Assembly (NCBI GenBank): GCA_963823945.1
Contig: CAWGNK010000003.1
Span: 5,732 to 69,731 of the forward strand
Direction of reading: 5' to 3'
DNA: 64,000 nucleotides
Source: an uncultured Acidimicrobiaceae bacterium
Lineage (GTDB): Bacteria > Actinomycetota > Acidimicrobiia > Acidimicrobiales > Bog-793
Shown here in pieces: positions 12,001-52,963 of the stretch. Each line of letters starts with the position of its first letter. Within the stretch, counting starts at the first letter, position 1. The position numbers and the translations under genes are program-made. Below the pieces are notes generated by a model, which did not search any database, was not told the origin of the DNA, and was given only the letters and a program-made list of their open reading frames with translations.

Positions 12001-13294
12001 CGCTGCTGTCTGCCAGCACCGTGTTGCCATCGACATCCTGGATCGTCACCGCGATCGCGAAACTTCCCGTCCCGGCGGCCTGGATGTTCGACCCCGAGGC
12101 GGGCTGGGTCGTGAAAACGAGTCCCGCCGGGTTGCCCGCGGTGATGTTGAAGGAATTGGCATTTGTGGGCGCTTTCAGCGTCGGGCTGCTCGAGCTGGAA
12201 GCCGTGAGCGTGTAGCCGGTCCCGGTCTTCGTGATGGCGCAACCGGTGAAGCTCGCCACGCCGGCGGATGCCGTCGCCGTCAGGCCGCCTGTGCAGCTGA
12301 GCACACCGCCGCCCGGGTTGTTGTTGATCGCGAGGGTGACCTGGTCGCTGCTGTCGACAAGCACCGTGTTGCCATAGACGTCTTGGATCGCCACCGCGGC
12401 TGAGAAGCTGCCCGTTCCGGTGGCCTGGACGTTCGCCCCCGAGGCCGGTTGCGTGGAGAACGAGAGCCCGGAAGGGCTGCCCGCGGCGATGCTGAACGTG
12501 GCGCTCGTGGCCGTGGTCAGCGTGCCATCGGTCGCCGTGAGCGTGTAGCCCGTCCCTGCTGTCGTGAGGCTGCAGCCCGAGAAGGTGACGACGCCGTAGA
12601 ACTCGTTCCCCGCACACGTGGCCGACAGGGTTGCCCCGCTCGTCCCCGACCCCGCGGTGACCGTCAGGCTGACAGGGGAAAGGTCGGTCGTGACGATGTT
12701 GCCTGCGGCATCCTCGACGGCGACCACCGGCGGCGGCGAGAGGGCCGAGCCAGCGCTTACGCTACCGGGCTGCCCGATGAAGACCAGCTGCGTCGCCGCG
12801 CCCGGGACCGGGATTGGGTGGGCAAGGGGATCGTCGACGACGACGCTGATCTGGTAGACGGTCCCGTTATAGGTGACCGAGATGATGTCCAGCTGAGCCG
12901 CGTTGGGGACGCACGTCGTGCTGAACGTGGTGCCGTTCCAGTACTCCGCCGTGGAGACCTGCGCCGTGTAGCCACTCGGAAGGCTGAATTGCGACTGTGG
13001 CATCACGGCTCCGGGACAGGTGCCCCAGAACGAGCTCGATTGCTGCTGGAGCCAGGTGGTCGCCTCCTCGGCGGCACTTCTCAGTACGGTGTCGACTGTC
13101 GCCACGCTGCGGTAGTCGGACGAACCCCAGATCGACGTGCTGAACCCGAGCATGAGCGACGTCGACGCCAACCCGAGCACGAGCACCGCGACGATGACCT
13201 CGATGAGCGTGTCGCCGGCTGCCGACCTTCGGGAGGATGCACGGTCGTGTGGGCGAGCCTCACGCTCAACTAGAGGGTGAAGGTGTCGCCTCAT
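6002..13294 (-). CDS. giant type IV pilin-like (class III signal) protein with about 20 tandem Ig-like modules
   Basis: ORF track 6002..13345 (2447 aa). I prefer ATG 13294 (GAAGG lies 10 nt upstream); the alternative is GTG 13345. N-terminus ...RRSAAG|DTLIEVIVAVLVLGLASTSLMLGF has Gly-1, Glu+5 and a hydrophobic helix. Then about 150 aa of unique sequence, followed by 12 modules of WDVQPVGGVTEGT type, 4 of FTPA.PGP type and 4 divergent ones. Each is 100-115 aa with V.VEDA.GN.V and mostly a Cys pair. Confidence 0.85.
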   Translation of the reverse strand: MRRHLHPLVEREARPHDRASSRRSAAGDTLIEVIVAVLVLGLASTSLMLGFSTSIWGSSDYRSVATVDTVLRSAAEEATTWLQQQSSSFWGTCPGAVMPQSQFSLPSGYTAQVSTAEYWNGTTFSTTCVPNAAQLDIISVTYNGTVYQISVVVDDPLAHPIPVPGAATQLVFIGQPGSVSAGSALSPPPVVAVEDAAGNIVTTDLSPVSLTVTAGSGTSGATLSATCAGNEFYGVVTFSGCSLTTAGTGYTLTATDGTLTTATSATFSIAAGSPSGLSFSTQPASGANVQATGTGSFSAAVAIQDVYGNTVLVDSSDQVTLAINNNPGGGVLSCTGGLTATASAGVASFTGCAITKTGTGYTLTASSSSSPTLKAPTNANSFNITAGNPAGLVFTTQPASGSNIQAAGTGSFAIAVTIQDVDGNTVLADSSDQVTLAINNNPAGGVLSCTGGLTATASAGVASFAGCAITKVGTGYTLTASSATSPTVTAPSNVNPVNITPGAAAALAVSGYPTSTVAGVSHSFTVTALDADGNTATGYAGTVGITASNDAAAVLPPSATLTSGIGTFSATFKTVAGGAKTLTATDTVTGTITGSEPGISVTPAAATQLAFTPASPGPVAAGSTIPNVAVSVEDAYGNVVTAATGSVVMSIKSGSPQSSFTSGTLTIPLSSGVATFPNLVVDTAGSYTFTATPSGIAGVTTAVNSSAFTVTASTATKLVWDVQPVGGVTEGTNFATQPVVYVEDAYGNVVTNNASSVTLAINGYTAGNGGTNQGSLGCTALTVTASAGVATFAGCKITGTAAAGTYTLTATDGSLTAAPASSNVSVIAGAATQLVFTPATPGPGVAGTVIPNVEVSVEDANGNVVTAATGSVVLSIKSGGPQSSFTSGTSTITLSSGVANFTNLVVDTAGSYTFTATPSGISGVTTAVNSSAFTVTASTATKLVWDVQPVGGVTEGTNFATQPKIYVEDAYGNVVTSDTSSVTLAINGYTAGNGGTNQGTLGCTALTVSAASGVATFAGCQITGTAAAGTYTLTASDGSLTAAPASSAVSITYGTATQLVWDVQPVGGVTEGTNFATQPVVYVEDANGNVVTNNASSVTLAINGYTAGNGGTTSGTLGCTALTVTASAGVATFAGCKITGTAAAGTYTLTATDGSLTAAPASSNVSVIAGAATQLVFTPATPGPGVAGTVIPNVEVSVEDANGNVVTAATGSVVLSIKSGGPQSSFTSGTSTITLSSGVANFTNLVVDTAGSYTFTATPSGISGVTTAVNSSAFTVTASTATKLVWDVQPVGGVTEGTNFATQPKIYVEDAYGNVVTSDTSSVTLAINGYTAGNGGTNQGTLGCTALTVSAASGVATFAGCQITGTAAAGTYTLTASDGSLTAAPASSAVSITYGTATQLVWDVQPVGGVTEGTNFATQPVVYVEDANGNVVTNNASSVTLAINGYTAGNGGTTSGTLGCTALTVTASAGVATFAGCQITGTAAAGTYTLKATDGTLTAAPASSNVSVIAGTASKLAWDVQPVGGVTEGTNFATQPVIYVEDANGNVVTSDTSSVTLAINGYTAGNGGTTQGSLGCTALTVTAVAGVATFAGCQITGTAAAGTYTLKATDGSLTAAPASSSVSINYGTATKLAWDVQPVGGVTEGTSFGTQPKIYVEDANGNVVTNNASSVTLAISGYTAGNGGTNQGTLGCTALTVTASAGVATFAACQITGTAAAGTYTLTASDGSLTAAPASSAVSITYGTATKLAWDVQPVGGVTEGTNFATQPVIYVEDANGNVVTNNASSVTLAINGYTAGNGGTTQGTLGCTALTVTASSGVATFAGCQITGTAGAGTYTLKATDGSLTAAPASSNVSVIASTASKLVWDVQPVGGVTEGTNFATQPVIYVEDAYGNVVTSDTSSVTLAINGYTAGNGGTNQGSLGCTALTVTASAGVATFAGCQITGTAAAGTYTLKATDGSLTAAPASSAVSITYGTATKLAWDVQPVGGVTEGTNFATQPVVYVEDANGNVVTNNASSVTLALNGYTAGNGGTTSGTLGCTALTVTASAGVATFAACKITGTAAAGTYTLKATDGTLTAAPASSNVSVIAGTASKLAWDVQPVGGVTEGTNFATQPVIYVEDANGNVVTSDTSSVTLAINGYTAGNGGTTQGTLGCTALTVTAVAGVATFAGCQITGTAAAGTYTLKATDGSLTAAPASSSVSINYGTATKLGWDVQPVGGVTEGTSFATQPKIYVEDAYGNVVTNNTTVVTLALNGYTAGNGGTTEGTLGCTALAVTASAGVATFAACKITGTAADGSYTLTASDSSLTSAPASSAVSIIAGAASKLAFTPAAPGPGTHGSSIPNVAVSVEDANGNVVTTATGSVVISIKSGCPQTSFTSGTTTITLSSGVATFNNLVVTATGSYTFTATPSGISGVTTAVNSSAFTVS
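6030..11250 (-). repeat. coding tandem repeats (about 315-345 bp units) of the giant pilin-like gene
   Basis: Periodic protein modules are visible in the translation. Repeated antisense and alternate-frame ORFs in the track (6087, 9549, 10572 and 11247 on the plus strand; 6378..8867 on the minus strand) reflect the same DNA periodicity. Confidence 0.9.
8868..10867 (-). repeat. two near-identical direct copies with 1,023-bp period (8868-9844 and 9891-10867)
   Basis: Line-by-line comparison at offset 1023. The copies are identical except for one mismatch I found (9308 A vs 10331 G, synonymous). Plus-strand ORFs 9549..9857 and 10572..10880 have identical translations. A 341-aa protein block is repeated exactly. 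Confidence 0.9.
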
Positions 13295-13463
13295 GAAACT
13301 CGGCCTTCGGGTGCTGTGGTGACGGGCGGAACAGCCGACCCGCACCCAGAAACGGAAGCGCTGACCATCCGAGGTGTCTCGTCAGACGAAGAATCGTCAT
13401 CGCGGCACTCGACCCCGGCGCAGCCGCGAGCTCCGGGGGCGGATGAGAGGATCGTCGCGCGCG

Positions 13464-14897
13464 TCATGGCAGAAGCACACCCACGAATATCGCCTCGAGC
13501 CCGGCCCCGACCATGTCCACGGTCAGCGTCTTCGGCGACGGCACCTCCAACATGACGGTGCCCGTCTTGTCCGAACTGACCGATGCCGCACACTCGACCG
13601 AGTTCGTGCCGACCCCGGTCAATCCGGCCCCGGGACCCGGGTCGGCGCAGGCGTTGCCGATCTCGGAGGACGGGCTGTCGGGAAGCAGGCTGAACGCCTT
13701 GCCAGAGTCCGTCGTCCAGGTCAGCGACTCGCCGGCGTCCGTGGACTCGGCGTCTCCGGTCACGAGCTCCCAGCCCGTCGCCGCGTTGCCGTTCGAGTCC
13801 GTCAGCTCGATGTTCGTGATGTAGACGTACGAGGTGGAGCCTTCCTCGTTCTGGTAGAGCGCCGGGTTGCCGGCGATACCCGTGTAGAAACCGTTGTTGC
13901 CGAGAAAGGCCTCACTCGTGGGGGGGTCAAAGTAGGTCGGGATGGGGCACGCGGCGACCGCCGGGACGGTCGGTGCCGTCGCCGTCTCGCCGGGGCACAC
14001 GATGACCGAGCCGGTGGCCGGCGTCGTCGTCGTTCTGAGGCAGAACGACAGCGTGTACGGAGTGTTTGCGACGGCCGCCGTCATGTTCTGGCACGTGCCG
14101 TACTGCGCCTGTTGGCCGGCCGTCGCGTTGTTGTACTCGTTGAAGAGGAACTTGGTGAAGTCCACGAAGCACAGAGTCGAGGAGTAGGTGCCCGTCCCGG
14201 GTGTGGTGAATCCACAGCTCGTCGTGGTGGGGGCAGCCACGCCGGAGAGCTGACCCGAGGACGAGCTCGCCCTGGGGACCGCGAACAACGTGTACGGGTA
14301 GGAGCTTCCCGGTTCCGTGACCCCGAGGGTGACGCTCGTCACGCCCACCGCGGAGACCCAGCCGGAAGCCGCGGCGGTGGCCTTGCTGGTCGGGAGGACC
14401 GCAGGGGCTAGTTGACCCGAGGGGATGTCGTTGGAGACGGTGACGGAGGTCGTGGGGGTGGTGGACGCTCCCGCGGCGCAGTAGCGGCGCACCAGTGAGA
14501 AGCCCGTGCCGTTCGCGGTCTCGACGTAGGAAACGACGGACTGGTACTGACCGGTCTGCTGGTTCAGGTTCCATTCCAGCCCCAGCAGCTGGGTCCCCGT
14601 TCCGCACTGCGTCGCGGTGGCGCTCGTGGTGAGGTCGGACGCGCTTTCGACGTCCTGCTCGTAATAAGCGGAAACGGTCTGGGCGTCCGCCGCGTCGGAG
14701 ACCCTGCTCGCGACGTTGTGCTGGAGCGAGAGAAGCGCGAGGAGCGCGAGGGCAAGTCCGCCGACGATGATCGGGACGATCGCGGAGACGATGATCATCT
14801 CGATCAGCGTGAATCCATCCCCGTCCCGCGCGGGAGAAACCGTGGCGCGCCCGCACCGCAAGGCGCGGGCCACCCCTCCAGTCCGACGACCCCTCAC
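13464..14897 (-). CDS. large type IV pilin-like protein (477 aa) with prepilin leader
   Basis: N-terminus MRGRRTGGVARALRCGRATVSPARDGDG|FTLIEMIIVSAIVPIIVGGLALALLALL has the canonical G|FTLIE motif with Glu+5. The rest is Ser/Thr/Gly-rich and predicted extracellular. It lies immediately upstream of the giant gene on the same strand (118-nt gap). Confidence 0.85.
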   Translation of the reverse strand: MRGRRTGGVARALRCGRATVSPARDGDGFTLIEMIIVSAIVPIIVGGLALALLALLSLQHNVASRVSDAADAQTVSAYYEQDVESASDLTTSATATQCGTGTQLLGLEWNLNQQTGQYQSVVSYVETANGTGFSLVRRYCAAGASTTPTTSVTVSNDIPSGQLAPAVLPTSKATAAASGWVSAVGVTSVTLGVTEPGSSYPYTLFAVPRASSSSGQLSGVAAPTTTSCGFTTPGTGTYSSTLCFVDFTKFLFNEYNNATAGQQAQYGTCQNMTAAVANTPYTLSFCLRTTTTPATGSVIVCPGETATAPTVPAVAACPIPTYFDPPTSEAFLGNNGFYTGIAGNPALYQNEEGSTSYVYITNIELTDSNGNAATGWELVTGDAESTDAGESLTWTTDSGKAFSLLPDSPSSEIGNACADPGPGAGLTGVGTNSVECAASVSSDKTGTVMLEVPSPKTLTVDMVGAGLEAIFVGVLLP

Positions 14898-15364
14898 AGT
14901 TCCCTCACCTGATGCCGCTCGAACGACATGGTGGATGGGCCGAATTCTGCGACGACCGACGCGGCAGCCTCCCTGGCGGGGGCGTCGAGGTTGTCATTTC
15001 AGCCGGGTTCGCAAGTTCCTGCGCGCTCTCAGCGGGCTCAGAACCGTAGAACATGGCGGCCGCCTCAAAGGTATAGGTCGAACTTCACGTATTCTCAGCC
15101 GCCGATTCTACCTCGGTGCCACGAATCTCTTCGGCACAATTGGCGCCGCGACCTGGCGGATGATTCATCCTGGTCAGGAGTCGGCGAGACCGAGCCATCT
15201 CTGTCGCACAAACGCGTCATGCCTGTCGGAGTACGGCATGTGCCCTACTGCTCAACGATCGTCGGGATGCTCGAAGGCATTCGTCTGACGGCGCGACGCT
15301 TGACGTAGAGTTCCTCTCGGCGGAGCATTTGTCGAGAGATATTGGTTCCACGAAGGGCAAGGCC

Positions 15365-16873
15365 GTGAGAGGCATGCCAGAAGAGCCGTCGCACGCCAGC
15401 GGGTGTCGGCCTCGAGTCACCGCGCCCGCCCGGGCGGGGGACAAGCGCGGCGAAGCGGGTGCGATCCTCGTCCTGGCGCTCGTCTTTCTGCTCATCACAG
15501 TCATCATCGTCGGTTCCCTCGCCAGCGGGATCACGAACGACCTCAACAACTCCAATACGTTCAAGTCGGTCCGCTCGCTCCAGTACGCGGCGAGAAGCGC
15601 GACCGATCTGGCGATCCAGATGATCCGCTACACCCCCCTGCTGACGACGTCGGAAACCCTGAATGCGAGCCCGCCGAGCTACTGCTGGGGGAACGGCCCG
15701 GTTTCCGAGGTCACCAACATCGACGGCGTGCCCGCGATGGCCGTCTGGTGCAGCACGGCGTGGACGCCAACGAGTGCCGACACCCGGACCGTGACCTTCT
15801 CGACTTGCCCGGTCTCTGGGTCTGAGACGGCAACGCTGTGCGCGTCGCAGCCGCTGCTTCAGGCGGTGGTCTCCTTCGACGACTACCCCGCGGGCGTCAG
15901 CTCGCCGTCGACGGCGGAGTGTGTCGTCTACTGCGGCACGACAATGGCCGTGGACAGCTGGGTGTGGAATCCGGTGGTCCCGACGGTCTCCGCCATAAGC
16001 CCCTCGACGGGGCCGATCACCGGTGGCACGTCGGTGACGATCACCGGGACAGGCTTCGTGACTGGTACAACTGTCAACTTCATCGAGGAATCGGGCGGCA
16101 CCCCGGTCTCCGACAATGTGGTCCTCCCCGCCACGGGCGTGACGGTGAATGGACCGACATCGCTCACGGTCGCCGCGCCCGCCGCGACGGAGGGAACCAC
16201 CTACTTCGTCACCGTCACGACAGCGACGGGAAACAGTGCGTACAGCACCAGTGGCAATGACGTCTTCACCTATTCCCCGGTCGCGCCAACCATCACGGCA
16301 GTGAGTCCCGCTTCGGGGGGGATCGCAGGCGGCAATTCCGTGACGATCTCGGGGACCGGGTTCTACAGCGGCGCAACCGTCGACTTCGTGCAGGAGTCTG
16401 GTGGTTCTCCAGTGGTCGGTGGAGTGACCGCCGGTGCTACCTACGTGTCGGTGTCTGGGTCCACCACGATCACCGCCGTCTCGCCGGCGGTGACCTCGCC
16501 CGGAACCTACTTCGTCACCGTCGCGACGCCCGCGGGCACGACCCCCACCGGAGCCAATGATGTCTTCACCTATTCACTGCTGGTGCCCATCGTTTCCTCC
16601 ATCAGCCCATCGTCGGGCCCGATCGCGGGCGGTACGGCGGTGACGATCAGCGGGACCGGGTTCGTGAGCGGCGACACCGTCAGCTTCACCCCGGAATCCA
16701 ACTACAGCCCTGTCGGCAGCGCGATCGCGGCGACCGGGGTGACGGTCGTCGGGTCCTCCACGATCACGGTCACTTCGCCGGCCGTGGCCTCGACGGGAAC
16801 GTACTTCGTCACCGTCACCACTCCCGGCACGGGTATGAGCAGTTACTTCCCCATCTACACGTACTCGTCCTGA
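15365..16873 (+). CDS. PilX_N-like membrane-anchored protein with three C-terminal IPT/TIG domains
   Basis: ORF 15329..16873; start ambiguous (TTG 15329, GTG 15365, ATG 15374). KRGEAGAILVLALVFLLITVIIVGSLASG resembles the PilX N-terminal anchor. Three units of about 100 aa read ISPS.GPI.GGT.VTI.GTGF...TYFVTV...VFTYS. Confidence 0.8.
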   Translation: MRGMPEEPSHASGCRPRVTAPARAGDKRGEAGAILVLALVFLLITVIIVGSLASGITNDLNNSNTFKSVRSLQYAARSATDLAIQMIRYTPLLTTSETLNASPPSYCWGNGPVSEVTNIDGVPAMAVWCSTAWTPTSADTRTVTFSTCPVSGSETATLCASQPLLQAVVSFDDYPAGVSSPSTAECVVYCGTTMAVDSWVWNPVVPTVSAISPSTGPITGGTSVTITGTGFVTGTTVNFIEESGGTPVSDNVVLPATGVTVNGPTSLTVAAPAATEGTTYFVTVTTATGNSAYSTSGNDVFTYSPVAPTITAVSPASGGIAGGNSVTISGTGFYSGATVDFVQESGGSPVVGGVTAGATYVSVSGSTTITAVSPAVTSPGTYFVTVATPAGTTPTGANDVFTYSLLVPIVSSISPSSGPIAGGTAVTISGTGFVSGDTVSFTPESNYSPVGSAIAATGVTVVGSSTITVTSPAVASTGTYFVTVTTPGTGMSSYFPIYTYSS

Positions 16874-21492: not shown

Positions 21493-21653
21493 CGCACGGC
21501 GGGCCCGGGCGGCCGGGCTCGCCGCGGACTGGCGCGCTTCCCCCGACCTGCCGCGGCCTGGCCGGCGGCGTTCTGATCTGCGGTCCGTACGGCCATACTG
21601 TTCCAAGACAAAAGCGGGGCCGCGGCCCCTCAACCGCCGAGCGGAGGCACGAA

Positions 21654-22472: not shown

Positions 22473-23185
22473 CACGCCTCCAGCCCCGGCCCACACCTGG
22501 AGGGCGCGCCGCCGCCACGCGCCGCCGGGGACCGTGGTCCGTTCTTGCGATCACACTCGCCCTCATCGTCACGACCGCCGGACCGGTCGAGGCGTCGGGT
22601 GGCGGCGCGACGATCCCCCCGTACACCGCGACGGTTTCGGCGGTGACCCGGGCGACTGTCCCCTACTCGTGGCGGCCCGGTTGCCCGGTGGGGCCGAACC
22701 AGCTCCGGCTCATCCGCCTGCGCTACTACGGCTTCGATCACCGGAGCCACATCGGGAGGATCATCGTCAACGCCTCCGTCGTGAACGCCGTCATCGCCGT
22801 CTTCGGGCGCCTCTACGCGGCGCGTTTCCCGATCCGGCGCATGGTTCCCGTGGACGCCTACCACGGCCACGACCCGGCCTCGATGGCGGCGGACAACACG
22901 TCGGGCTTCAACTGCCGTCGGGCGGTGGCACCGGGCCCGCCCCAGTGGTCGGTCCACGCCTACGGCGAGGCGATCGACGTGAACCCGGTCGAGAACCCCT
23001 ACGTCGACGCCGGTGTCGTCATGCCCACCGCCGGGGCGCGGTACCTCGACAGAGCCGACGTCCGGCCCGGCATGGCTGTCCCGGGGGGGACGCTCGTCGA
23101 AGCCTTCGCCGCGGTCGGCTGGTATTGGGGCGGACGCTGGACGGGCTCGCCCGACTACCAACACTTCTCATCGACCGGTGGCTGA
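22469..23185 (+). CDS. secreted peptidase M15 family (VanY/LD-carboxypeptidase-like)
   Basis: 238 aa. The ATG overlaps the lgt stop (ATGA). Arg-rich signal peptide. Zinc-ligand motifs HAYGEAIDVNP and GWYWGGRW...DYQHF. Confidence 0.8.
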   Translation: MTRLQPRPTPGGRAAATRRRGPWSVLAITLALIVTTAGPVEASGGGATIPPYTATVSAVTRATVPYSWRPGCPVGPNQLRLIRLRYYGFDHRSHIGRIIVNASVVNAVIAVFGRLYAARFPIRRMVPVDAYHGHDPASMAADNTSGFNCRRAVAPGPPQWSVHAYGEAIDVNPVENPYVDAGVVMPTAGARYLDRADVRPGMAVPGGTLVEAFAAVGWYWGGRWTGSPDYQHFSSTGG

Positions 23186-23212
23186 GTCCACCGGGACCGC
23201 CGCGACACCACG

Positions 23213-23968
23213 GTGACGCCCGCCGCCGGAATCGGCCACGCGGCAGCGGTTCTCGCCCTCGTCGCGTTGGCGGCGCTCGCCGCCTCAACAGGGGCGGACC
23301 GCGCTGTCGGCGCCGCCGCCACCCGCCGGGCCGCGTCTCCGTGCGGCGCCAACCTCGCCGACGGCCTGCCCGGCACCACGCGCGCCTCGCAACTCGTCGT
23401 CGTCGAGGCGCCGTCGACCTCCTCGACGACGGCGACGGTGACGCTCTGGCACCGGCAGAGAGGGTGCTTCACCCAGGTCGGCGGCCCGTGGCCGGCACTG
23501 CTTGGCCGGCATGGTCTCTCGAGGCACCACCTCGAGGGGGACGGGACGACGCCGATCGGCACCTACGGGATCGGGCCCGAGATGTACGGCGTCGCGCCCG
23601 ATCCCGGGCTGGCATACCCCTACCACCGCCTCGTCTGCGGTGACTGGTGGGACGAGGACCCGACGACGCCGAGCTACAACCGCTTCGTCCACGTACCCTG
23701 CGGCGTCCGGCCGCCGTTCGGCGGCGACAGTGAGGCGCTCTGGACCGAGACGACCGCCTATCGCTACTTCGCCCTGATCGAGTACAACACCGCGCCGATC
23801 GTGCCCGGACGGGGCTCGGCGATCTTCCTCCACGTCTCGACGGGAGGACCGACGGTGGGTTGTGTCAGCCTTGCTGAGCCCGCGCTCGTCCACACGCTGC
23901 GCTGGCTGCGCCCGGCGGAACACCCCCTCGTCGTCATCGGTACGAAGACGACCCTGCGCGACGTCTGA
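23213..23968 (+). CDS. L,D-transpeptidase (YkuD) family protein
   Basis: 251 aa with a signal peptide. Catalytic motif GSAIFLHVSTGGPTVGCVSL (His ... Gly-Cys). Confidence 0.8.
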   Translation: MTPAAGIGHAAAVLALVALAALAASTGADRAVGAAATRRAASPCGANLADGLPGTTRASQLVVVEAPSTSSTTATVTLWHRQRGCFTQVGGPWPALLGRHGLSRHHLEGDGTTPIGTYGIGPEMYGVAPDPGLAYPYHRLVCGDWWDEDPTTPSYNRFVHVPCGVRPPFGGDSEALWTETTAYRYFALIEYNTAPIVPGRGSAIFLHVSTGGPTVGCVSLAEPALVHTLRWLRPAEHPLVVIGTKTTLRDV

Positions 23969-24230: not shown

Positions 24231-26129
24231 ATGAGGCTCCGACGGGGCGACCACTCGAAGGTCCGCCAGCGCTCCGCTCCGGAAGCGGTCGAAGCCGCCC
24301 ACCCGCGCAAGAACGAGGGTGAATCTGGCGCGCTGCCGTGGAGCGACCTCACCCAGCCCTTCTCGACGGCCGGACTGGAGGGGGACGGCCACCTCCAGGG
24401 CGACGGGCTCGGCGAGATCGTCCGCCTCGGCGTGCACGACGTCGCCGACAAGTCGCAGCTCAGGCTCGGGGACCTCCTCATCGGTCGCGGTCTCGTCACC
24501 GAGGCACAGGTCGCCGAGGCGCTCGGCAAGCAGCGCGAGAGCGGCGGTCGCCTCGGGCAGGTCCTCGTCGACATGGGCGTGCTCGGCGAACGGGGGCTCG
24601 TCGACGCGCTCGCCTGGAAGTTCGACATGCCCGAGTGCGACCTGCGCACCCAGATTCCCCAGAAGGACGCGCTCGAGCTCGTGCCCGAGGAGACCGCCCG
24701 GGCCCAACTCGTCCTGCCGGTCGCGCTCAGCGGCGACATCATCTTTATCGCCGTCGCCGAGCCGAGCGAAGACCTCCAGCAGATGCTCGAGGCGCTCACC
24801 CAGCGGGAAGTCCACCTCATGATCGTGCCGGTGAGCGACGTCCGCCAGGCGATCGACTCCAACTACGGCGCGCTCGGCGGTGTGACGAGCCTCGTCGAGG
24901 TCTTCCAGTCGATCGAGGGGGGGCGACGCCGGGGCCAGGAACAGCCGAAGGCCGAGGTCATCGCGGACGACGCCCCCGTCGTCCAGGTCGTCAACCGCAT
25001 CCTCACGCAGGCGCTGCGGGACCGCGCATCTGACGTCCACATCGAGCCCCAGGACAGCTCTGTGCGCGTGCGCTACCGCATCGACGGGGTCATGAAGGAA
25101 ATGCTCATGCTCCCCGCGTCGATGGGCCTCGGTCTCGTGAACCGCATCAAGATCATGGCGGAAATGAACATCGTCGAGAGGCGGCGTCCCCAGGACGGCC
25201 AGTTCACGACGACAGTCGACGACAGGTCGGTCGATGTGCGCGTGTCCACGCTCGCGACGATCTGGGGCGAGAAGTGCGTCATGCGGATCCTCGACAAGAC
25301 GCGGTCGGTTCTGCGCCTTGAGCACCTTGGGATGCCGACGGCTTTGAGCGACAGGTTCTCGGAGATCATTCGCGCCCCCTTCGGCATGGTCGTCTGCGCC
25401 GGGCCGACGGGGAGTGGCAAGACGACGACGCTCTACGCGACTCTGAACGAGCTGAACGACCCGACGCGCAACATCATGACGATCGAGGATCCCGTCGAGT
25501 ACGTGTTCGCCTCGATGAACCAGATCCAGACCAACGAGCAGGCGGGCCTGACCTTCGCGACGGGGCTCAAGTCGATCCTGCGCCAAGACCCGGACGTCAT
25601 CCTCGTCGGCGAGATCCGAGACGTCGAGACTGCCCGCATCGCGGTGCAGTCGGCGATGACGGGCCACTTCGTCCTCTCGTCACTCCACGCGACCGACACC
25701 GTCACGGCGCTGCTCCGCTTCTACGACATGGGCGTCGAGCCGTTCCTCATCGCGGCCTCGGTCGTCGCGGTGCTGAGCCAGCGGCTCGTGCGCCGGATCT
25801 GCCCGGCCTGCAAGACGCGCTGCACGCCGACCCCCGAGGAGCGTGCCTACTACGACGAGTCGGGCGGACCCGAGAAGTCCATCTTCTACCGCGGCGAGGG
25901 GTGCAACTTCTGTGCCCAGACAGGCTTCCAGGACCGCATCGGCGTCTACGAGCTCCTGGAGATCACCACCGCGATCAAGCGCCTGATCATCGAGGCCGGC
26001 ACGCACGACGAGCTCCGCCAAGCAGCGAGAGACCAGGGAATGAAGACCCTGCGACAGGTCGCCATCGAGCTCGTCGCAGAGGACGTCACGACGGTGTCAG
26101 AAGTCATCCGCAGCATCTACACGTTGTAG
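24231..26129 (+). CDS. pilB: type IV pilus assembly ATPase PilB (GspE family) with MshEN-type N-terminal domain
   Basis: ORF 23862..26129 trimmed past the upstream gene. ATG 24231; alternative GTG 24432, 10 codons before the RLGDLL motif. Walker A GPTGSGKTTT, Asp/His boxes, and the tetracysteine CPACK...CNFC. Confidence 0.9.
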   Translation: MRLRRGDHSKVRQRSAPEAVEAAHPRKNEGESGALPWSDLTQPFSTAGLEGDGHLQGDGLGEIVRLGVHDVADKSQLRLGDLLIGRGLVTEAQVAEALGKQRESGGRLGQVLVDMGVLGERGLVDALAWKFDMPECDLRTQIPQKDALELVPEETARAQLVLPVALSGDIIFIAVAEPSEDLQQMLEALTQREVHLMIVPVSDVRQAIDSNYGALGGVTSLVEVFQSIEGGRRRGQEQPKAEVIADDAPVVQVVNRILTQALRDRASDVHIEPQDSSVRVRYRIDGVMKEMLMLPASMGLGLVNRIKIMAEMNIVERRRPQDGQFTTTVDDRSVDVRVSTLATIWGEKCVMRILDKTRSVLRLEHLGMPTALSDRFSEIIRAPFGMVVCAGPTGSGKTTTLYATLNELNDPTRNIMTIEDPVEYVFASMNQIQTNEQAGLTFATGLKSILRQDPDVILVGEIRDVETARIAVQSAMTGHFVLSSLHATDTVTALLRFYDMGVEPFLIAASVVAVLSQRLVRRICPACKTRCTPTPEERAYYDESGGPEKSIFYRGEGCNFCAQTGFQDRIGVYELLEITTAIKRLIIEAGTHDELRQAARDQGMKTLRQVAIELVAEDVTTVSEVIRSIYTL

Positions 26130-26141
26130 CCGGGGTAGCTC

Positions 26142-27350
26142 ATGGCCCGTTTCACATACAAGGCGATCGACAAGTCCGGCAAGACCGTGTCGGGCGTGCT
26201 CGCCGCACCGACAGCTGGCGCCGCCCACCTCATGGTGCTCGCCCGTGGGCTGCAGCCCATTGCCGTCGAGGAGAGGACGAGCGTCCTCCAGTACGAGCTC
26301 ACGAAGAAGAAGGTGCCCCGCGAGGAGGTCATGCACTTTTCGCGCCAGTTGGGCGTCTTCGTGAAGGCTGGCATCCCGATCCTCGACTCGCTCGAGATCA
26401 TCGAGGCCGAGACGACCGACAAGCTGTTCAAGAAGGTTCTCCACGACATGGTCGATGCGCTCGCCGCCGGCGACACGTTCGCCCTCGCGGCCGAGGCGCA
26501 CCCTGAGGCGTTCCCCCCGTACTACGTGGGCATGCTCTCCTCGGCCGAACTCGCCGGCAACCTCGACACCGTTCTCACCCAGCTCGCCGACTACATGGAA
26601 CGGGACGCGGATGCACGCGGCAAGGTCACCGCAGCGATGATCTATCCCGGGGTCGTGCTGGGGATGTCAATCGTCACCTTCGTCGTGCTCGGCGTATTCG
26701 TCATGCCACGGTTCAAGGTGTTCTTCCAGTCGCTCCACGCGAACCTCCCGCTCCCGACGAAGATGCTGCTCGACCTCACGAACTTCATCGAGACGAACTG
26801 GTACTTCCTCTTCGGGGGCATCGCCGCCGTCGTGATCCTCATCGCGATCGCCTTTCGCTCGAAGCAGGGCAGGGCACGCATCGACTCCTGGGTGCTGCGC
26901 ATGCCCGTCATCGGGGATCTCATCCAGCACGTCATGGTCGAGCGCATCTGCCGGATCCTGTCTTCGATGATCCAGGCGGGAGTGTCCCTCCCCGAGGCGA
27001 TGACGGTCACGTCCGAATCCGTGTCGAACGTCGTGTACAAGCATGGACTCGACACCATCCGGGACGAGATGCTCGAGGGGCGCGGCCTTTCGGAGCCCGT
27101 CGCGAGCACGGACCTGTTCCCGAGCGCCGCGCGCCAGATGATGCGCGTCGGCGAGGAGACCGGAACGCTCGACGAGCAGCTCACGGTCGCCGCCACGTAC
27201 TACGCACGCGAGCTCGATTCCAAGATCAAGCGCTTCACTGGCCTCTTCGAACCCGCGATCATCATCGTCATGGGGGTCGTCGTCGGATTCGTCGCCATCG
27301 CCCTCATTTCCGCGATGTACGGCATCTACCGCCAGGTGAAGGTCACGTAG
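26142..27350 (+). CDS. pilC: type IV pilus platform protein PilC (GspF family)
   Basis: 402 aa. Two T2SSF repeats (FSRQLGVFVKAGIPILDSL; ICRILSSMIQAGVSLPEAM) and three TM segments. Confidence 0.9.
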   Translation: MARFTYKAIDKSGKTVSGVLAAPTAGAAHLMVLARGLQPIAVEERTSVLQYELTKKKVPREEVMHFSRQLGVFVKAGIPILDSLEIIEAETTDKLFKKVLHDMVDALAAGDTFALAAEAHPEAFPPYYVGMLSSAELAGNLDTVLTQLADYMERDADARGKVTAAMIYPGVVLGMSIVTFVVLGVFVMPRFKVFFQSLHANLPLPTKMLLDLTNFIETNWYFLFGGIAAVVILIAIAFRSKQGRARIDSWVLRMPVIGDLIQHVMVERICRILSSMIQAGVSLPEAMTVTSESVSNVVYKHGLDTIRDEMLEGRGLSEPVASTDLFPSAARQMMRVGEETGTLDEQLTVAATYYARELDSKIKRFTGLFEPAIIIVMGVVVGFVAIALISAMYGIYRQVKVT

Positions 27351-27735
27351 TTCGCTTCAGCTCTCGCGGACCCTCGCCCCAGCCGGACCCTCCGTGATTG
27401 ACGTCCATTCCAGTCGGCGCAAGGAAGTGTGTCCGGCTTTCGTCTTGCCCCCTAGCCAGCCACCGCATTTTCGCAAATATCGCCTGGCGCGACTAGACGG
27501 CGAGCAGCCCTGGGCGGGAGAGACGCGGGTCGTCCGCGGGTCGCGGCTACCCTGCGTACCTGGCCAAGACGAGACCCGCGACCCCGATGGGGTCAAATGC
27601 GCCCTGGCGGCTGACACATGTTGATCATTGCTCATGCGTCACATGGATCAAAATCCGCCACTTCGCGGATGGCCAGGGCTACTCTTCGTCCGTAGCCCGT
27701 TAGAGCCATCGATCTGAAGAAAGGTACCAGCCATC

Positions 27736-28248
27736 ATGTTCAGCACCTACCGAGAAATGCGCAAGGCCAAGACGGAAGGTCTCGATCAAGAAGGATTCAC
27801 CCTGATTGAACTCCTGATCGTCATCATCATCATGGGCATCCTCGCCGCCGTCGTCGTCTTCGCCCTCGGCGGGGTGACCGGCACGAGCGCGGTCGCCGCG
27901 TGCAACACCGACGTGAAGACCGTCGAAGTCGGCGTCCAGGCGTACTACGCCAACAACAACGCCTACCCGAGCGCGATCACCGGCCTGACGACCGGCGCGA
28001 ACGCCGCCCTCCGGAGCTGGCCGAGCAACAATTCCTACTACTACGTGGGAATTGCGACCTCGGCCACGAACCTCCAGTACATCAACTCGTCCGGTGTCAC
28101 GTCGTACGTGACCACCACCGGTCTCACGGCCGGCCAGGTCTACGTTGACGCCGGCAATCCTCCTGCCTCTCCCGCGACCATCGGCAGCTGGCAGAACTAC
28201 GACTCCTACGTCGTGACCGGCGGCGGCAACGAATGCTCGCTGGCCTAG
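27736..28248 (+). CDS. pilA: type IV major pilin candidate
   Basis: 170 aa. The 20-aa leader ends in G|FTLIELLIVIIIMGILAAVVVFALGG (Glu+5). One Cys near the N-terminal end of the globular part and one 4 residues from the C-terminus. Own 385-bp upstream region and a strong downstream hairpin. Confidence 0.9.
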   Translation: MFSTYREMRKAKTEGLDQEGFTLIELLIVIIIMGILAAVVVFALGGVTGTSAVAACNTDVKTVEVGVQAYYANNNAYPSAITGLTTGANAALRSWPSNNSYYYVGIATSATNLQYINSSGVTSYVTTTGLTAGQVYVDAGNPPASPATIGSWQNYDSYVVTGGGNECSLA

Positions 28249-28280
28249 TCAGCAACACTCTTGATCCCAATTCAGATCGA

Positions 28281-28320
28281 GGACAAAAGGGGTCCGGCTT
28301 CGGCCGGGCCCCTTTTGTCC
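28281..28320 (+). terminator. strong stem-loop downstream of pilA (candidate intrinsic terminator or attenuator before pilT)
   Basis: GGACAAAAGGGGTCCGGC-TTCG-GCCGGGCCCCTTTTGTCC: 18-bp stem (one G-U pair) with a tetraloop, 33 nt after the pilA stop. No U-tract follows, so termination efficiency is uncertain. Confidence 0.6.
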
Positions 28321-28353
28321 TGGCGATGACTCGATGAAGGTGGTCCTAGGCAC

Positions 28354-29424
28354 ATGGTGAACGTCGACACGTCTGCGATTGACGCCTGGCTCGAACTCCT
28401 CTGGGACCACAAGGGCTCGGACCTTCTGCTCTCCGCCGGCTCGCCCCCACGGCTCCGTCTGGACGGCTCGCTCGTCTCGATCCAGGGGGCGTCGGAGCTG
28501 ACGCCGGATGAGGTCAACCGCGTGATCCGTTCCGTGCTCCTCCCCGTGCAGCTCGAGGCATTCACGAAGAACCGGGACTACGACTTCGCGTTCTCGTGGC
28601 AGGGCCGTGCCCGCATGCGCGGCAACGCCTTCAATCAGCGCGGGAGCCCCGCCATGGCGCTGCGCATGATCCCGATGCGGATCCCCAGCTTCGAAGAGCT
28701 GCAGCTGCCCCCGATCATGACCTATCTCGCGAACCTGCCGCGGGGCTTCGTTCTCGTGACGGGTCCGACCGGGTCCGGAAAGTCGACGACGCTCGCGTCG
28801 ATCATCGACTTCATCAACGAGAATCGCGCCGTCCACGTGCTCACGATCGAGGACCCGATCGAGTACCTCCACCACCACAAGCGCGCGCTCGTCAACCAGC
28901 GCGAGGTCGGCGTCGACAGCCCGTCGTTCGAACGCGCGCTGCGCGCCTCGCTGCGCGAGGACCCCGACGTCATGCTCATCGGCGAAATGCGCGACCTCGA
29001 ATCGATCCAGATCGCCCTGACGATGGCCGAGACCGGTCACCTCGTGTTCGGGACGCTCCACACCTATGACGCACCACAGGCGATCGACCGGATCATCGAC
29101 GTGTTCCCCGCCGACAAGAAGGATCTCATCCGTATCCAGCTGGCCGGATCGCTCGGCGCGGTGGTCGCCCAACGCCTCGTCAACCGGGTCGGAGGGGGCC
29201 GGGTCGGGGCTTTCGAAGTGCTCCTCGCCAACAACGCCTGCCGCGCGCTGATCCGTGAGGGAAAGACCTACCAGCTCCGCAATGTGATCGCGACAAACCA
29301 GCGCGAAGGCATGCAGACGCTCGAGATGAGTCTCATCGCGCTGATGAACGCCGGCACGATCACGTATGACTCCGCCGTCGAGACGTCGATGTACCCCAAG
29401 GACCTAGCCCGCGCGGTGACGTAG
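28354..29424 (+). CDS. pilT: twitching-motility/retraction ATPase PilT
   Basis: 356 aa. Walker A GPTGSGKSTT, LREDPDVMLIGEMRD, AETGHLVFGTLHT, and the PilT-type C-terminal region. Confidence 0.9.
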   Translation: MVNVDTSAIDAWLELLWDHKGSDLLLSAGSPPRLRLDGSLVSIQGASELTPDEVNRVIRSVLLPVQLEAFTKNRDYDFAFSWQGRARMRGNAFNQRGSPAMALRMIPMRIPSFEELQLPPIMTYLANLPRGFVLVTGPTGSGKSTTLASIIDFINENRAVHVLTIEDPIEYLHHHKRALVNQREVGVDSPSFERALRASLREDPDVMLIGEMRDLESIQIALTMAETGHLVFGTLHTYDAPQAIDRIIDVFPADKKDLIRIQLAGSLGAVVAQRLVNRVGGGRVGAFEVLLANNACRALIREGKTYQLRNVIATNQREGMQTLEMSLIALMNAGTITYDSAVETSMYPKDLARAVT

Positions 29425-29640
29425 GCAGCCGTACCGGGGAGCGTGTTCGACGCCACGTGGTCTCTGTCCGCCCGCGGCGGCAACCCGCAGGACGATCGTG
29501 CGCCGCCGATTCTCGTCTGAGATCCCGCCGGCCAAGGCTGTCGCCGACGTGTCCGGTGTCGCGGCCGGCCCGTAGGTCACGATGAAGGCGACGCACCGGT
29601 CGCGATTCTCCCCGCGCCGCTCGTCGGTCAGGTCGGCCAT
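29404..29640 (-). CDS. possible small hypothetical protein (78 aa), convergent with pilT
   Basis: ATG 29640 within ORF 29404..29658, with GGAG 5 nt upstream. Third-position G/C is very high for the first roughly 50 codons and then decays. No motif. Overlaps the pilT 3' end by 21 nt. Confidence 0.25.
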   Translation of the reverse strand: MADLTDERRGENRDRCVAFIVTYGPAATPDTSATALAGGISDENRRRTIVLRVAAAGGQRPRGVEHAPRYGCLRHRAG

Positions 29641-29927
29641 GGGTGGCTCCGGGCGCACCGCCCGCGCCGCCTACCCAGTTGCGCGGCGGGTTGGCTGACC
29701 GTCTACCGTCCCGAACATGCGATCCTTCACTCACCCGCCCCGCCATCCCGGCAGGGGGGCCCGACGCGCCAAGCCACCCCCCGCCTGCCATTCCCGTCAA
29801 CGCCGGCCGCTCCAGGGGGCGTGGGAGCCGTTCTGTCGGAGGTGCCGGTGCCGGCCTGCACCGCGTCCGTAACGGGGAAACCGTGGCGGCGACCGATTCC
29901 GAGCCCACTCCGATCCCGGTATGCCCG

Positions 29928-31784
29928 ATGGAGCGAGTAATGGCCAAATCCGACCGGGGCATTCAGCGAGGCGGGCGTCACCCCAGGTGGCACGCGGCGG
30001 CGGTGACGCTCGTCTACGCCGCGCTCGCGGTCGCGGCGTTCCTCCCCGTCGGGCCACTCGACGACAGCCGTATCGTCTCGCGGCTCCCGAGCGACACCAT
30101 GGCCGTCGGATGGTTCCTCGCCTGGCCGGCCTATGCGCTGGCGCACGCCCACAACGTGCTGTTCACGAACTGGCTCGACCATCCGACGGGCGTCAATCTG
30201 CCCGTCAACCAGTCGATGCCGCTGCTCGGCGTGGTCATGGCCCCCGTGACGCTTCTGTTCGGTCCGTTCGCGACGATCAACCTCACCCTGCGGCTCGCCT
30301 TCGTGGCCTCGGCGCTCGCGATGTTCTTCGCCCTGCGACGGTTCTGCGTGCGCGACCTTTCGGCCTTCCTCGGCGGCCTCGTCTACGGGTTCTCGCCGTT
30401 CATCGTCGCCCACAGCGCCGTCAACCAAGACTTCACCTTCGCGCCGCTCCCGCCGTTGATCCTCCTCGCCCTCTACGGACTCGCACACGACGACGACCGC
30501 AAGGTCCTCACGACTGGCCTGCTGCTGGGCCTGGGCATCGCAGCCCAGCTCTATCTCAACCCCGAGATGGCGATGGACACTCTCGTCGTCGCCGGGTTCA
30601 CGGTCGTCATCTGCGGCACCGCCGCGGCGCGGCGGATCGGGAGGGCACGAGTGGTCCGCTTCTTGCGGGGCTGCGGCATCGCCGCCGGCACCGCCTTCGT
30701 GCTTTCGGCGCCATTCCTCTGGTACTACCTCGCCGGGCCGCAGCACCTCCACGGGTCGGTCGTCGCTCCCTCGATCCTCGCCGTGTTCCACACCGACCTC
30801 GCGGGACTCGTGACACCCGGCCGGAACCAGCTGCTCGCCTCGACGAGCGTCAACGCCACCGGCAACGAGTTCATGGCCGGGATGACCAACGAGATCGGGA
30901 CCTATCTCGGCGTCCCTCTCCTCGCCGGCCTCGTCTGGTTCGTCGCGCGCAACTGGCGTAGGGCCGTCGTGTCGGTGAGCGCGGTGACGTTTCTCGTCGC
31001 GCTCGTGCTCTCGCTCGGCCCGCGGCTCAGCTTCGACAACCACGTGCTGCCGATACCGCTCCCGGACCGGGCCCTCGACCTCCTGCCGCTCTTCGGTCGA
31101 CTCGAGAGCGTCCGCTACTTCCTCCTCGTCGATCTGGCAGCGGCGGTGATCCTCGCCGTGGGCATCGACCTCGTGCTGTGCGAGTGGCAGCCCCGCGCCT
31201 TCGTCGCCCGCCACGTGCGGATCGACCGTGCCCGCCTCGCCGGCGGTCTCGTCGTCGCCGCCGTGCTGTTGTTCCCGCTCATCCCGCGCTGGCCGTACCC
31301 GTCGGAACCGACCGACGTGCCGAGCTACTTCACGTCGTCGTCGGTGGACCGCATCACGACCGGGGCCGCCGTCCTCACCTACCCGTACGCCGAGCCGGAC
31401 AACGTCAGCGCCGAGATCTGGCAGCTGGCGGCGGGGCTTCGCTTCCGCCTCGTAGGCGGCTACGCCTACGTCGCCGACAACGGCGGACAGCCCTTCGGCA
31501 ACCCGCCGATCCATCCGGGAACGGTCGTCTCGTTGCTGCGGACCGCCTATGTGGACTACCTTGCACCCCCCCCGGCCGACACGGCGACGTACCGCGCGAT
31601 CCGGGCCGGGCTACGCGAGGCCCGGATCGACGACTTCGTGATGGCGATGCGGGGAGCGCACCCCGGGCTCGTGCGGGCCGAGATGACCGCCGCCCTCGGG
31701 CGGCGGCCGGTGGCCGCCGGCGGCGTCCTCGTCTGGTACGACGTGCCACGGGACCTCGCCGCCTTTCGGCCGGCGCCACGCTAG
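29928..31784 (+). CDS. large polytopic membrane protein, function unknown (GT-C-like topology suspected)
   Basis: ORF 29643..31784 trimmed to ATG 29928 (alternative 29940). About 12 hydrophobic segments in the first roughly 430 aa, then a soluble C-terminal domain of about 190 aa. Located between pilT and pilD. Confidence 0.75.
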   Translation: MERVMAKSDRGIQRGGRHPRWHAAAVTLVYAALAVAAFLPVGPLDDSRIVSRLPSDTMAVGWFLAWPAYALAHAHNVLFTNWLDHPTGVNLPVNQSMPLLGVVMAPVTLLFGPFATINLTLRLAFVASALAMFFALRRFCVRDLSAFLGGLVYGFSPFIVAHSAVNQDFTFAPLPPLILLALYGLAHDDDRKVLTTGLLLGLGIAAQLYLNPEMAMDTLVVAGFTVVICGTAAARRIGRARVVRFLRGCGIAAGTAFVLSAPFLWYYLAGPQHLHGSVVAPSILAVFHTDLAGLVTPGRNQLLASTSVNATGNEFMAGMTNEIGTYLGVPLLAGLVWFVARNWRRAVVSVSAVTFLVALVLSLGPRLSFDNHVLPIPLPDRALDLLPLFGRLESVRYFLLVDLAAAVILAVGIDLVLCEWQPRAFVARHVRIDRARLAGGLVVAAVLLFPLIPRWPYPSEPTDVPSYFTSSSVDRITTGAAVLTYPYAEPDNVSAEIWQLAAGLRFRLVGGYAYVADNGGQPFGNPPIHPGTVVSLLRTAYVDYLAPPPADTATYRAIRAGLREARIDDFVMAMRGAHPGLVRAEMTAALGRRPVAAGGVLVWYDVPRDLAAFRPAPR

Positions 31785-31827
31785 AGGCCTGCGGGCCGCG
31801 CGCGCCCTTGGCCGCGCCGCGCGGCGG

Positions 31828-32601
31828 TCAGCCGACGTGGAAGGGGCGAAGGATCCCCGCACCCGCGAAGACGGCGATCTCGGTGCCGATGGCGAGGAAG
31901 GGACCGAAGGGCACCTGGGTCGTGAGATCGGCGCCTTTCATCACGATCAGGCCGATCCCGACGACGGATCCGACGAGACTGGCGAGCAAGAACCCCACGA
32001 ACACGTAGCCGACGCCGAGCCAGCCGAGCGACACTCCGAGGCAGAAGACGAGCCGCACGTCGCCGAAGCCGAGCCACCGCGGGTTCACGGCGTTGATCGC
32101 GAAAAAGAGGCCGAACCAGGCCGCCCCGGCGCAGGCCGCGATGACGAGGCGCCGCCAGTCCCCCGTCTCACCCGAGGCGAGCGCGAGGAGCGCGCCGACG
32201 AGGATCGTCACGAGGTAGACGATCTGCTTGGGCAGCTTGCGCTGCTCGAGGTCGATCGCCGCCAGCACGAGCAGGCCGGCGGCCAGCACCACGTAGGCCG
32301 GTAGCGGCCAGGCTGACCCGAAGCGCGCGGCCGTCCCGGCGAACAGGCCGGCCGTCGACAGCTCGACGATCGGGTACTGGGCCGAGATCGGCGCCCGGCA
32401 GGTCCGGCACCGCCCGCGGAGCACGAGGTAGGACACCACGGGGATGTTGTCGAGCGCGCCAAGCGTCGTGCCGCAGCTCGGGCAGCGCGAACGGGGCGCC
32501 ACGATCGACTCGCCGCGGGGCACCCGGTAGATCACGACGTTCAGGAACGAGCCGAAGACCAGTCCGAACAGGCCGAGACCGACGACGAGCGCGACGAACA
32601 C
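31828..32601 (-). CDS. pilD: prepilin peptidase (A24 family)
   Basis: 257 aa. N-terminal CPSCG...CRTCR zinc motif. Catalytic Asp contexts AAIDLEQRKLP and GFGDVRLVF. Confidence 0.9.
   Translation of the reverse strand: MFVALVVGLGLFGLVFGSFLNVVIYRVPRGESIVAPRSRCPSCGTTLGALDNIPVVSYLVLRGRCRTCRAPISAQYPIVELSTAGLFAGTAARFGSAWPLPAYVVLAAGLLVLAAIDLEQRKLPKQIVYLVTILVGALLALASGETGDWRRLVIAACAGAAWFGLFFAINAVNPRWLGFGDVRLVFCLGVSLGWLGVGYVFVGFLLASLVGSVVGIGLIVMKGADLTTQVPFGPFLAIGTEIAVFAGAGILRPFHVG

Positions 32602-49683: not shown

Positions 49684-52963
<3,280 letters not shown>

Follow-up and report, generated by a model that had tools for sequence, protein, structure and literature searches.

A PilT-bearing type IVa-like pilus cluster without PilM, PilN and PilO in an uncultured Acidimicrobiaceae bacterium

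We have analysed a type IV pilus (T4P) gene cluster at positions 24231-32601 of a 64,000-nucleotide stretch of DNA (hereafter, the window) from an uncultured Acidimicrobiaceae bacterium (assembly GCA_963823945.1, contig CAWGNK010000003.1, positions 5,732 to 69,731), and relate it to the rest of the genome, which is a 2.18 Mb draft in 14 contigs with ~70% G+C and 92.5% completeness. A first-pass annotation made from the sequence had placed here pilB, pilC, pilA, pilT, a gene for a membrane protein of about 620 amino acids (aa) and, on the opposite strand, pilD. Pfam and NCBIfam models recover all six at the same positions, and all are intact. PilB, PilC, PilT and PilD are each encoded once in the genome, and whole-genome tblastn finds no additional ATPase of the T2SSE family; thus there is no sign of a Tad system. 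The cluster comprises the following features:

24231..26129, forward strand: pilB, extension ATPase, 632 aa, with an N-terminal MshEN-type domain that binds cyclic di-GMP (c-di-GMP) (Pfam T2SSE, E 9e-126, plus MshEN)
26142..27350, forward strand: pilC, platform protein of divergent type (System B, below), 402 aa (two T2SSF domains)
27605..27735, forward strand: conserved region upstream of pilA, putative promoter and 5' untranslated region (alignment with five relatives)
27736..28248, forward strand: pilA, major prepilin, 170 aa, with a Ser/Thr-rich globular part (N_methyl and TIGR02532)
28280..28321, forward strand: stem-loop 3' of pilA, 19-bp stem and UUCG loop (folding)
28354..29424, forward strand: pilT, retraction ATPase, 356 aa (TIGR01420, 448 bits against a cut-off of 319)
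29928..31784, forward strand: polytopic membrane glycosyltransferase of predicted glycosyltransferase C (GT-C) fold, 618 aa (predicted structure)
31828..32601, reverse strand: pilD, bifunctional prepilin peptidase/N-methyltransferase, 257 aa (A24_N_bact, E 1.8e-36, and Peptidase_A24)

The start codon of pilB is inferred within a frame open from 23862. Its product retains intact Walker A (GPTGSGKTT), Walker B (VILVGEIRD), His box and tetra-Cys (CPAC...CNFC) motifs, scores 540 bits on TIGR02538 and is matched by NF053729 over residues 78-128; its nearest PDB matches are Thermus PilF, Geobacter PilB and Myxococcus PilB. PilC scores below every NCBIfam equivalog cut-off (325 bits on the GspF model, 284 on Myxococcus PilC and 143 on ComGB), and its nearest PDB relative is Myxococcus PilC. 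A PilB-type ATPase and a PilC platform are therefore present with PDB relatives from type IVa pili (T4aP), though both proteins fall below the equivalog cut-offs. The T4aP retraction ATPase is present as well: PilT has intact Walker A, Asp box, Walker B and His box motifs, its AIRNLIRE motif reads ACRALIRE, and its nearest PDB matches are Aquifex, Pseudomonas and Geobacter PilT. Judged by these motifs, it is apparently catalytically competent. PilA carries the prepilin motif ...DQEG/FTLIELL (a 19-aa leader, G-1, F+1 and E+5) and PilD retains its Cys motifs and the GFGD Asp, which together make the type IVa-style prepilin and bifunctional peptidase expected of a T4aP.

The first-pass annotation had also given pilA its own upstream region and a hairpin, and both are borne out. 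Within the 385-nt spacer 5' of pilA, only the last ~130 nt are conserved in alignment with five relatives; they hold a small hairpin (GGGCTAC...GTAGCCC) and a Shine-Dalgarno sequence, GAAGAAAGG. A scan for sigma-70-type promoters 5' of pilA found none, and the WhiG/FliA-type promoter TAAA-N15/16-GCCGATAA, reported for Rubrobacter pil genes (PMC8325347), has no match within the window. The stem-loop 3' of pilA has a folding energy of -47.2 kcal/mol (z = -6.5), a stability reached by none of 200 shuffles, and probably acts between pilA and pilT as an intrinsic terminator or attenuator.

Search for PilM, PilN and PilO

Monoderm T4P normally include pilMNO, as the first-pass annotation had stated, in agreement with the literature (PMC6916266, PMC10191384) and with a PilMNO-bearing system found in the same class (System A, below). 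These proteins have been described as 'specific of Tfpa', and are essential in every T4aP tested, including that of the monoderm Streptococcus sanguinis (PMC6916266). The early observation that the window lacks pilM, pilN, pilO and pilQ holds, and extends to the whole genome. Pfam models for PilM_2, PilN, PilO and Secretin (PF00263) gave no match genome-wide while responding in control genomes, and neither did those for T2SSL (PF05134) and T2SSM (PF04612), that is, GspL and GspM.

Of 14 control genomes, just 2 gave PilN and PilO matches above the Pfam cut-offs. Because PilN and PilO are poorly conserved, lineage-specific hidden Markov models (HMMs) for PilM, PilN, PilO and a PilP-like protein were built, seeded from a canonical operon (L048), iterated over 18 pilMNO operons of Acidimicrobiia, and run with speed filters off against the 22,681 stop-to-stop open reading frames (ORFs) of the genome. 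They returned look-alikes, and no PilM, PilN or PilO. The PilM matches were two MreB homologues. Those to PilN and PilO were FtsB/DivIC-like and FtsL-like proteins, with the match confined to a transmembrane segment and coiled coil; the FtsL-like protein lies at C14:113051-113572, and the FtsB/DivIC-like septation protein (~49684-50139, reverse strand) is the sole ORF of the window to touch these models, and a false positive. Its weak match was recorded for 49687-51294 on the reverse strand. The PilM-PilN-PilO subcomplex of T4aP was thus not found in this genome, and there is no conventional pilMNO operon elsewhere in it.

System B across the Acidimicrobiia

The cluster belongs to a distinct conserved lineage, which we call System B. 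Its members combine pilB-pilC, three pilin-like genes, at least one pilA, pilT and, usually, a divergent pilD. A cassette of three pilin-like types accompanies pilB-pilC in System B loci, and in the window its members, which the first-pass annotation of the cluster does not name, are:

6002..13345, reverse strand: giant pilin-like protein, 2447 aa, with a prepilin-type N terminus and immunoglobulin (Ig)-like repeats (sequence; N-terminal homologues in related pil loci)
13464..14897, reverse strand: minor-pilin-like protein, 477 aa, with the motif G/FTLIEM (TIGR02532)
15329..16873, forward strand: third cassette member, 514 aa, with IPT/TIG repeats (Pfam TIG, E 5e-22)

We collected 74 System B loci from public genomes, with PilC 45-92% identical to that of the window; flanks extend to 10 kb on either side at most, and some contigs are much shorter. 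The PilM, PilN, PilO and PilP-like HMMs had no match in any of them; the same models detected PilM in two loci of other phyla from the same scan. Among 151 genomes drawn evenly from the class, PilM occurs in 50 and B-type PilC in 26, and 15 of these 26 are without PilM, including the closed, single-contig genomes G014, G067 and G095 of family f3. A further 16 System B genomes add 11 without PilM; two closed chromosomes (G155 and G156) and the four genomes most closely related to that of the window are in this group. In the other five, PilM lies outside the fetched System B locus, at a distance of ~300 kb in G157. At least 26 carriers, five of them closed, therefore have no PilM anywhere. The search for GspL and GspM in ten genomes with System B only found neither, apart from one sub-threshold T2SSM match ~2 Mb from the pil locus. 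The nearest relatives are Acidimicrobiales/Acidimicrobiaceae metagenome-assembled genomes (MAGs) from bog and soil samples.

These counts bear on the simplest objection, that pilMNO is missing only because the assembly is incomplete. The genome is indeed a 92.5% complete draft in 14 contigs, but the same absence recurs in all five closed genomes and in the nearest relatives, which indicates a stable property of System B and not an assembly gap. We regard this objection as extremely improbable.

A weightier alternative is that an assembly or alignment subcomplex exists, built of proteins unrelated to PilMNO or diverged past recognition, and is encoded elsewhere. There is precedent: in type IVb pili (T4bP), TcpR and TcpD replace PilMNOP, and in T4bP and T4cP the equivalents are formed by non-homologous proteins (PMC10191384). 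PilN and PilO are also small and poorly conserved, as the weak Pfam response in controls illustrates, and some sublineages have conserved neighbours of their own, such as a DUF429 protein and a coiled-coil protein. All likely genes of 88 System B neighbourhoods were clustered, many of these neighbourhoods being incomplete so that counts are lowered. Widely shared families are ATPases, in 87 loci, PilC, in 80, pilin-like proteins, in 67, the 514-aa type, in 45, and PilD, in 31; DUF429 (46), a polytopic family termed F6 (30) and response regulators (27) come next. Beyond pilB, pilC, pilT, pilD, pilA and the three pilin-like genes, no family is common across the neighbourhoods. DUF429, F6, the coiled-coil protein and families F9/F10, considered as universal substitutes for PilMNO, are absent from this genome in profile searches, and none can fill that role. 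Compact operons (L032 and L035) run pilB-pilC, three pilin-like genes, pilA and pilT with no spare ORF, leaving no space for extra genes, and the actin-like fold of PilM should be detectable, yet only MreB was found.

The first-pass annotation had proposed two alignment components within the window itself, and both were rejected. The first, the 618-aa polytopic protein, has no Pfam match of its own, though many of its homologues match DUF6311 (PF19830) and one GT87 (PF09594). Its AlphaFold2 model, from a 57-sequence alignment, is of high predicted accuracy (pLDDT 91, pTM 0.92) and has the polytopic N-terminal module and extracytoplasmic domain of the GT-C fold. In the PDB, Foldseek finds 19 matches at E <= 0.001, every one a GT-C enzyme (AftD, AglB, DPY19, STT3, AftA, ArnT and PglB among them; probability 1.0), and the next weaker matches, Pmt enzymes, are GT-C as well. 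A PDB sequence search with the profile of this GT-C family gave no match. The genome encodes four further paralogues, the family occurs in 6 of the 151 class genomes (one of these without PilT), and only the three closest relatives have the gene between pilT and pilD, while in one genome of family f4 it adjoins a second pilT copy. On the modelled fold, the protein is a GT-C glycosyltransferase, an accessory enzyme and not a part of the machine. The second candidate, a small ORF at 29404, corresponds to an antisense frame of 84 codons (29404..29658, reverse strand) with no family match and no tblastn match in 78 related loci, including relatives whose flanking genes are 75-90% identical, and is spurious. 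Thus, of the original reading, the reduced apparatus stands, as a gene set that lacks PilMNO lineage-wide, while the named substitutes do not. We consider an unrecognized subcomplex unlikely overall, though less so than an assembly gap.

System A, the other PilT-bearing system of the class, is a conventional monoderm T4aP. Its genes run pilB-pilT-pilC-pilA-pilD-pilM-pilN-pilO, followed by a PilP-like gene and aroC, and in some cases PilM is joined to PilN in a fusion; its PilC is ~31% identical to that of the window. We inferred maximum-likelihood trees (LG+C20, with SH-aLRT support) of PilB, PilT and PilC from both systems and four reference systems: an Arthrobacter plasmid T4P with PilM, Escherichia coli HofB/HofC, Cupriavidus GspE/GspF and IncI2 PilQ/PilR. 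System B is monophyletic in each (SH-aLRT 100 with a stem of 1.28 for PilC, 100 for PilB and 91 for PilT) and is not nested in System A; in the PilC tree it falls outside a grouping of System A, GspF and HofC. PilT is thus an old, co-inherited part of System B and not a recent addition. IncI2 PilQ and PilR stand on separate, very long branches and PilB is only ~28% identical to plasmid T4b ATPases by tblastn, so that ATPase and platform are not of T4bP type. The phylogeny called for at the outset hence assigns the set to no described subtype of matching gene content, within a limited reference set that is without ComG, mannose-sensitive haemagglutinin (MSH) and Tad proteins and has its sole outgroup on a very long branch.

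On the Thermus and Myxococcus PilC models of NCBIfam, the System B platform falls 100-180 bits short of System A PilC, and on the GspF model ~55-85 bits; on the ComGB model the two are close (133-143 against 147-149 bits).

The Arthrobacter reference (L139, NZ_CP104273.1:47331-66467) lies on a 400-kb plasmid and is annotated with pilM, PilB, PilT, PilC, an A24 peptidase and a prepilin; further genes for an ATPase of the type II secretion system (T2SS)/T4P family and for T2SSF proteins follow it, possibly a second set. Two other groups came up in the class survey. Genomes G030, G044, G104 and G144 (f24) and locus L046 combine PilT with a highly divergent PilC (25-26% identical, E ~1e-43) and lack PilM, and the small f24 genomes may hold a third PilM-less filament type. 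In family f11 (G001, G007, G023 and others), 14 genomes have a PilT-like gene (E ~1e-105) with neither PilC nor PilM.

A proposed retractile machine and its relatives

System B shares with monoderm T4aP (the S. sanguinis pil system and those of Clostridium perfringens and difficile) and with System A the components PilB, PilC, bifunctional PilD and PilT, a long-leader pilin of T4a style, modular minor pilins and the lack of a secretin. It differs from them in having no PilM, PilN or PilO, nor the PilP-like protein of System A, and in the gene order pilB-pilC...pilA-pilT where System A has pilB-pilT-pilC. The Com pilus of Firmicutes (ComGA, ComGB, ComGC-GG and ComC) also has an ATPase and a platform with neither PilMNO nor a secretin, and its operon order of ATPase, platform and pilins is that of System B. 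Unlike the Com pilus, System B has PilT and a full-length PilB with MshEN, and the window proteins fall short of the Com equivalogs (ComGA NF041000, 257 against a cut-off of 300; ComGB NF041012, 143 against 240). A likeness to the T2SS is seen in the top-scoring model of PilC (GspF), in the order E-F-pseudopilin and in the three minor pilins, which equal GspI/J/K in number. However, GspL, GspM, GspC and a secretin are lacking, PilT is present, the host is monoderm, and the GspE and GspF scores of the window PilB and PilC are below cut-off; the cluster is not a T2SS.

These likenesses could be taken to mean that the cluster builds a short pseudopilus for DNA uptake or for secretion across the wall, with PilT merely resetting it. 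Such a reading would explain the comG-like order of ATPase, platform and pilin-like genes without PilMNO, and the preference of PilC for the GspF model. Against it, scores on the ComGA and ComGB models stay under cut-off and do not exceed those of System A, GspL, GspM and a secretin were not found, and the full-length, MshEN-bearing PilB is closest to T4aP PilB/PilF; furthermore, the 2447-aa pilin-like protein with its Ig repeats and the four PilA-type genes of the genome point to an exposed adhesive fibre. We judge a pseudopilus to be improbable, more so than an unrecognized subcomplex.

We instead favour the interpretation, with a probability of roughly 0.65, that the cluster encodes a complete, retractile T4aP-like pilus machine of a single-membrane cell that works independently of PilM, PilN and PilO. 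From the gene content we infer that pili are made and retracted, and that no non-homologous substitute for PilMNO takes part. In this machine, PilD would cleave the 19-residue PilA leader after Gly-1 and methylate Phe+1, and the three minor-pilin-like proteins (477, 2447 and 514 aa) would prime assembly and finish at the pilus tip. The PilB hexamer would turn the PilC platform and so add pilins, probably gated by c-di-GMP through MshEN, and PilT would take the place of PilB on PilC and remove pilins, retracting the fibre. The complex that assembles the pilus at the cytoplasmic membrane would consist of the ATPase and platform alone, as in Com pili. These steps are drawn from established knowledge of the protein families.

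Several observations weigh against this interpretation. Nearly all carriers of System B are uncultured MAGs and the evidence is genomic. PilN and PilO are short and fast-evolving, and a divergent or non-homologous substitute could be encoded beyond the ±10 kb of the collected loci. System A, with its PilMNO, coexists in ~40% of carrier genomes, where components could be shared. Many System B loci have extra conserved genes (DUF429 and, in genomes of family f3, the coiled-coil protein), though these are absent from this genome. Finally, the experimental record on T4aP, S. sanguinis included, is uniformly one of PilMNO being essential (PMC6916266).

A PilMNO-independent machine could also be old. 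System B might be a surviving stage of type IV filament evolution, before or at the base of the split between Com and T4aP, at which PilT had been gained and PilMNO had not; the model of Denise et al. 2019, as summarised in PMC10191384, postulates such a stage. The three System B clades, of PilB, PilC and PilT, are all placed outside that of System A, and System B PilC is no more remote from ComGB than its System A counterpart but clearly more remote from the T4aP and T2SS models. This fits such an origin without proving it: fast evolution after a loss of PilMNO would look alike, and the trees contain no ComG, MSH or Tad. We consider the ancestral stage a tentative suggestion that is unlikely on present data.

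We found no description of a PilMNO-less, PilT-bearing pilus system in the searchable literature, and in the work of Denise et al. many systems of actinobacteria stayed 'generic' (PMC6668835). If our interpretation is right, System B would be the smallest known retractile T4P machine and a natural minimal version of it. Com pili assemble with the ATPase and platform only, and why other systems need extra membrane proteins is posed as an open question in the review literature, which asks whether PilMNO merely stabilise the ATPase-platform complex (PMC10191384). System B suggests that PilMNO may be dispensable, and offers a test of whether they are mechanistically required or only stabilizing, a compact gene set for reconstitution, and a data point on the order in which PilT and PilMNO were gained in the evolution of type IV filaments. 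It also corrects the view that the pili of Actinomycetota are of the Tad and sortase kinds, as the Acidimicrobiia have two different PilT-bearing systems.

Accessory pilins, glycosyltransferases and neighbouring genes

In related loci, homologues of the 477-aa protein sit between pilC and pilA/pilT, and the 514-aa type was called in 45 of the 88 neighbourhoods; read by eye, the N-terminal transmembrane segment of the 514-aa protein would be of PilX/GspK style. The three-gene cassette lies directly beyond pilD in the closest relatives (L117:16331-21204, L114 and L061). In the window it is ~7 kb 5' of pilB, past genes for cytochrome b, a major facilitator superfamily (MFS) protein, Lgt, M15 and YkuD, with the 514-aa gene inverted, and this difference points to a recent rearrangement.

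The four PilA-type genes of the genome include three outside the window that are, by tblastn, 98%, 74% and 50% identical to the window PilA:

C5:366957-367466, strand not listed: PilA-type gene (tblastn)
C5:119468-119977, strand not listed: PilA-type gene (tblastn)
C14:170515-170922, strand not listed: PilA-type gene (tblastn)

A second minor-pilin cassette is found at C10:55991-60371, with proteins of the 477-aa type (48% identity) and 514-aa type (53%). One motor may thus assemble alternative fibres and tips.

Given its modelled fold, the 618-aa protein would most likely transfer sugar from a polyprenyl-phosphate donor, outside the cytoplasm, to pilin or another substrate in the envelope. 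In Pseudomonas aeruginosa with group IV pilins, the gene next to that of the pilin encodes TfpW, a large polytopic glycosyltransferase of GT-C type. The window gene likewise stands beside pil genes, and the likeness drawn here is one of gene setting; the closest PDB folds include the mycobacterial arabinofuranosyltransferases AftD and AftA. Residue D56 is at least 90% conserved among the 57 homologues and is a candidate for the conserved acidic residue that GT-C enzymes have in the first extracytoplasmic loop. The Ser/Thr-rich PilA is compatible with pilin glycosylation, which is not proof of it, and with four paralogues of the enzyme elsewhere the pilin is possibly not the substrate.

In 30 System B loci, pilA is adjoined by F6, a different polytopic family of ~460 aa with no Pfam match. 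The F6 model (pLDDT 78) is of GT-C fold too, with PIG-M, ALG6 and PimE as best PDB matches. We rejected homology with the 618-aa protein, as the hhalign probability is a non-significant 9% and the structure is of a different GT-C class. The presence of two unrelated GT-C families at pil loci suggests that the pilin, or the envelope crossed by the pilus, is glycosylated, and in the models the GT-C enzymes at pilin genes look like convergent recruitment.

Two further families recur at System B loci. The DUF429 protein (PF04250, E 9e-25; 240 aa) is encoded directly 3' of pilT in 46 of the 88 loci, and the coiled-coil protein of family f3 genomes, of ~440 aa and without a specific family match, directly 5' of pilB in the same orientation. 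Examples of these and of F6 are:

L072:13124-13846, L108:13151-13873 and L099:17380-18084, strand not listed: DUF429 protein (PF04250)
L027:14860-16185, L028:14999-16291 and L029:3224-4558, same strand as pilB: coiled-coil protein in genomes of family f3 (neighbourhood clustering)
L097:12348-13733, L090:11822-13213 and L067:17820-19358, strand not listed: F6 (neighbourhood clustering)

The genes 3' of pilD in the window are not pilus genes and encode a pyridoxal phosphate (PLP)-dependent decarboxylase, PhoU, an MFS transporter, DegV and an esterase. Directly 5' of pilB (21600-23968) are genes for Lgt, a protein resembling M15 D-Ala-D-Ala carboxypeptidases and a YkuD L,D-transpeptidase. At pilB in the System B loci that are more distant, this trio is not kept. 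It holds its position in the closest relatives with long enough contigs (L059-L061, L063, L064, L114 and L117), the L062 contig ending at M15, and may be connected with how the pilus crosses the wall.

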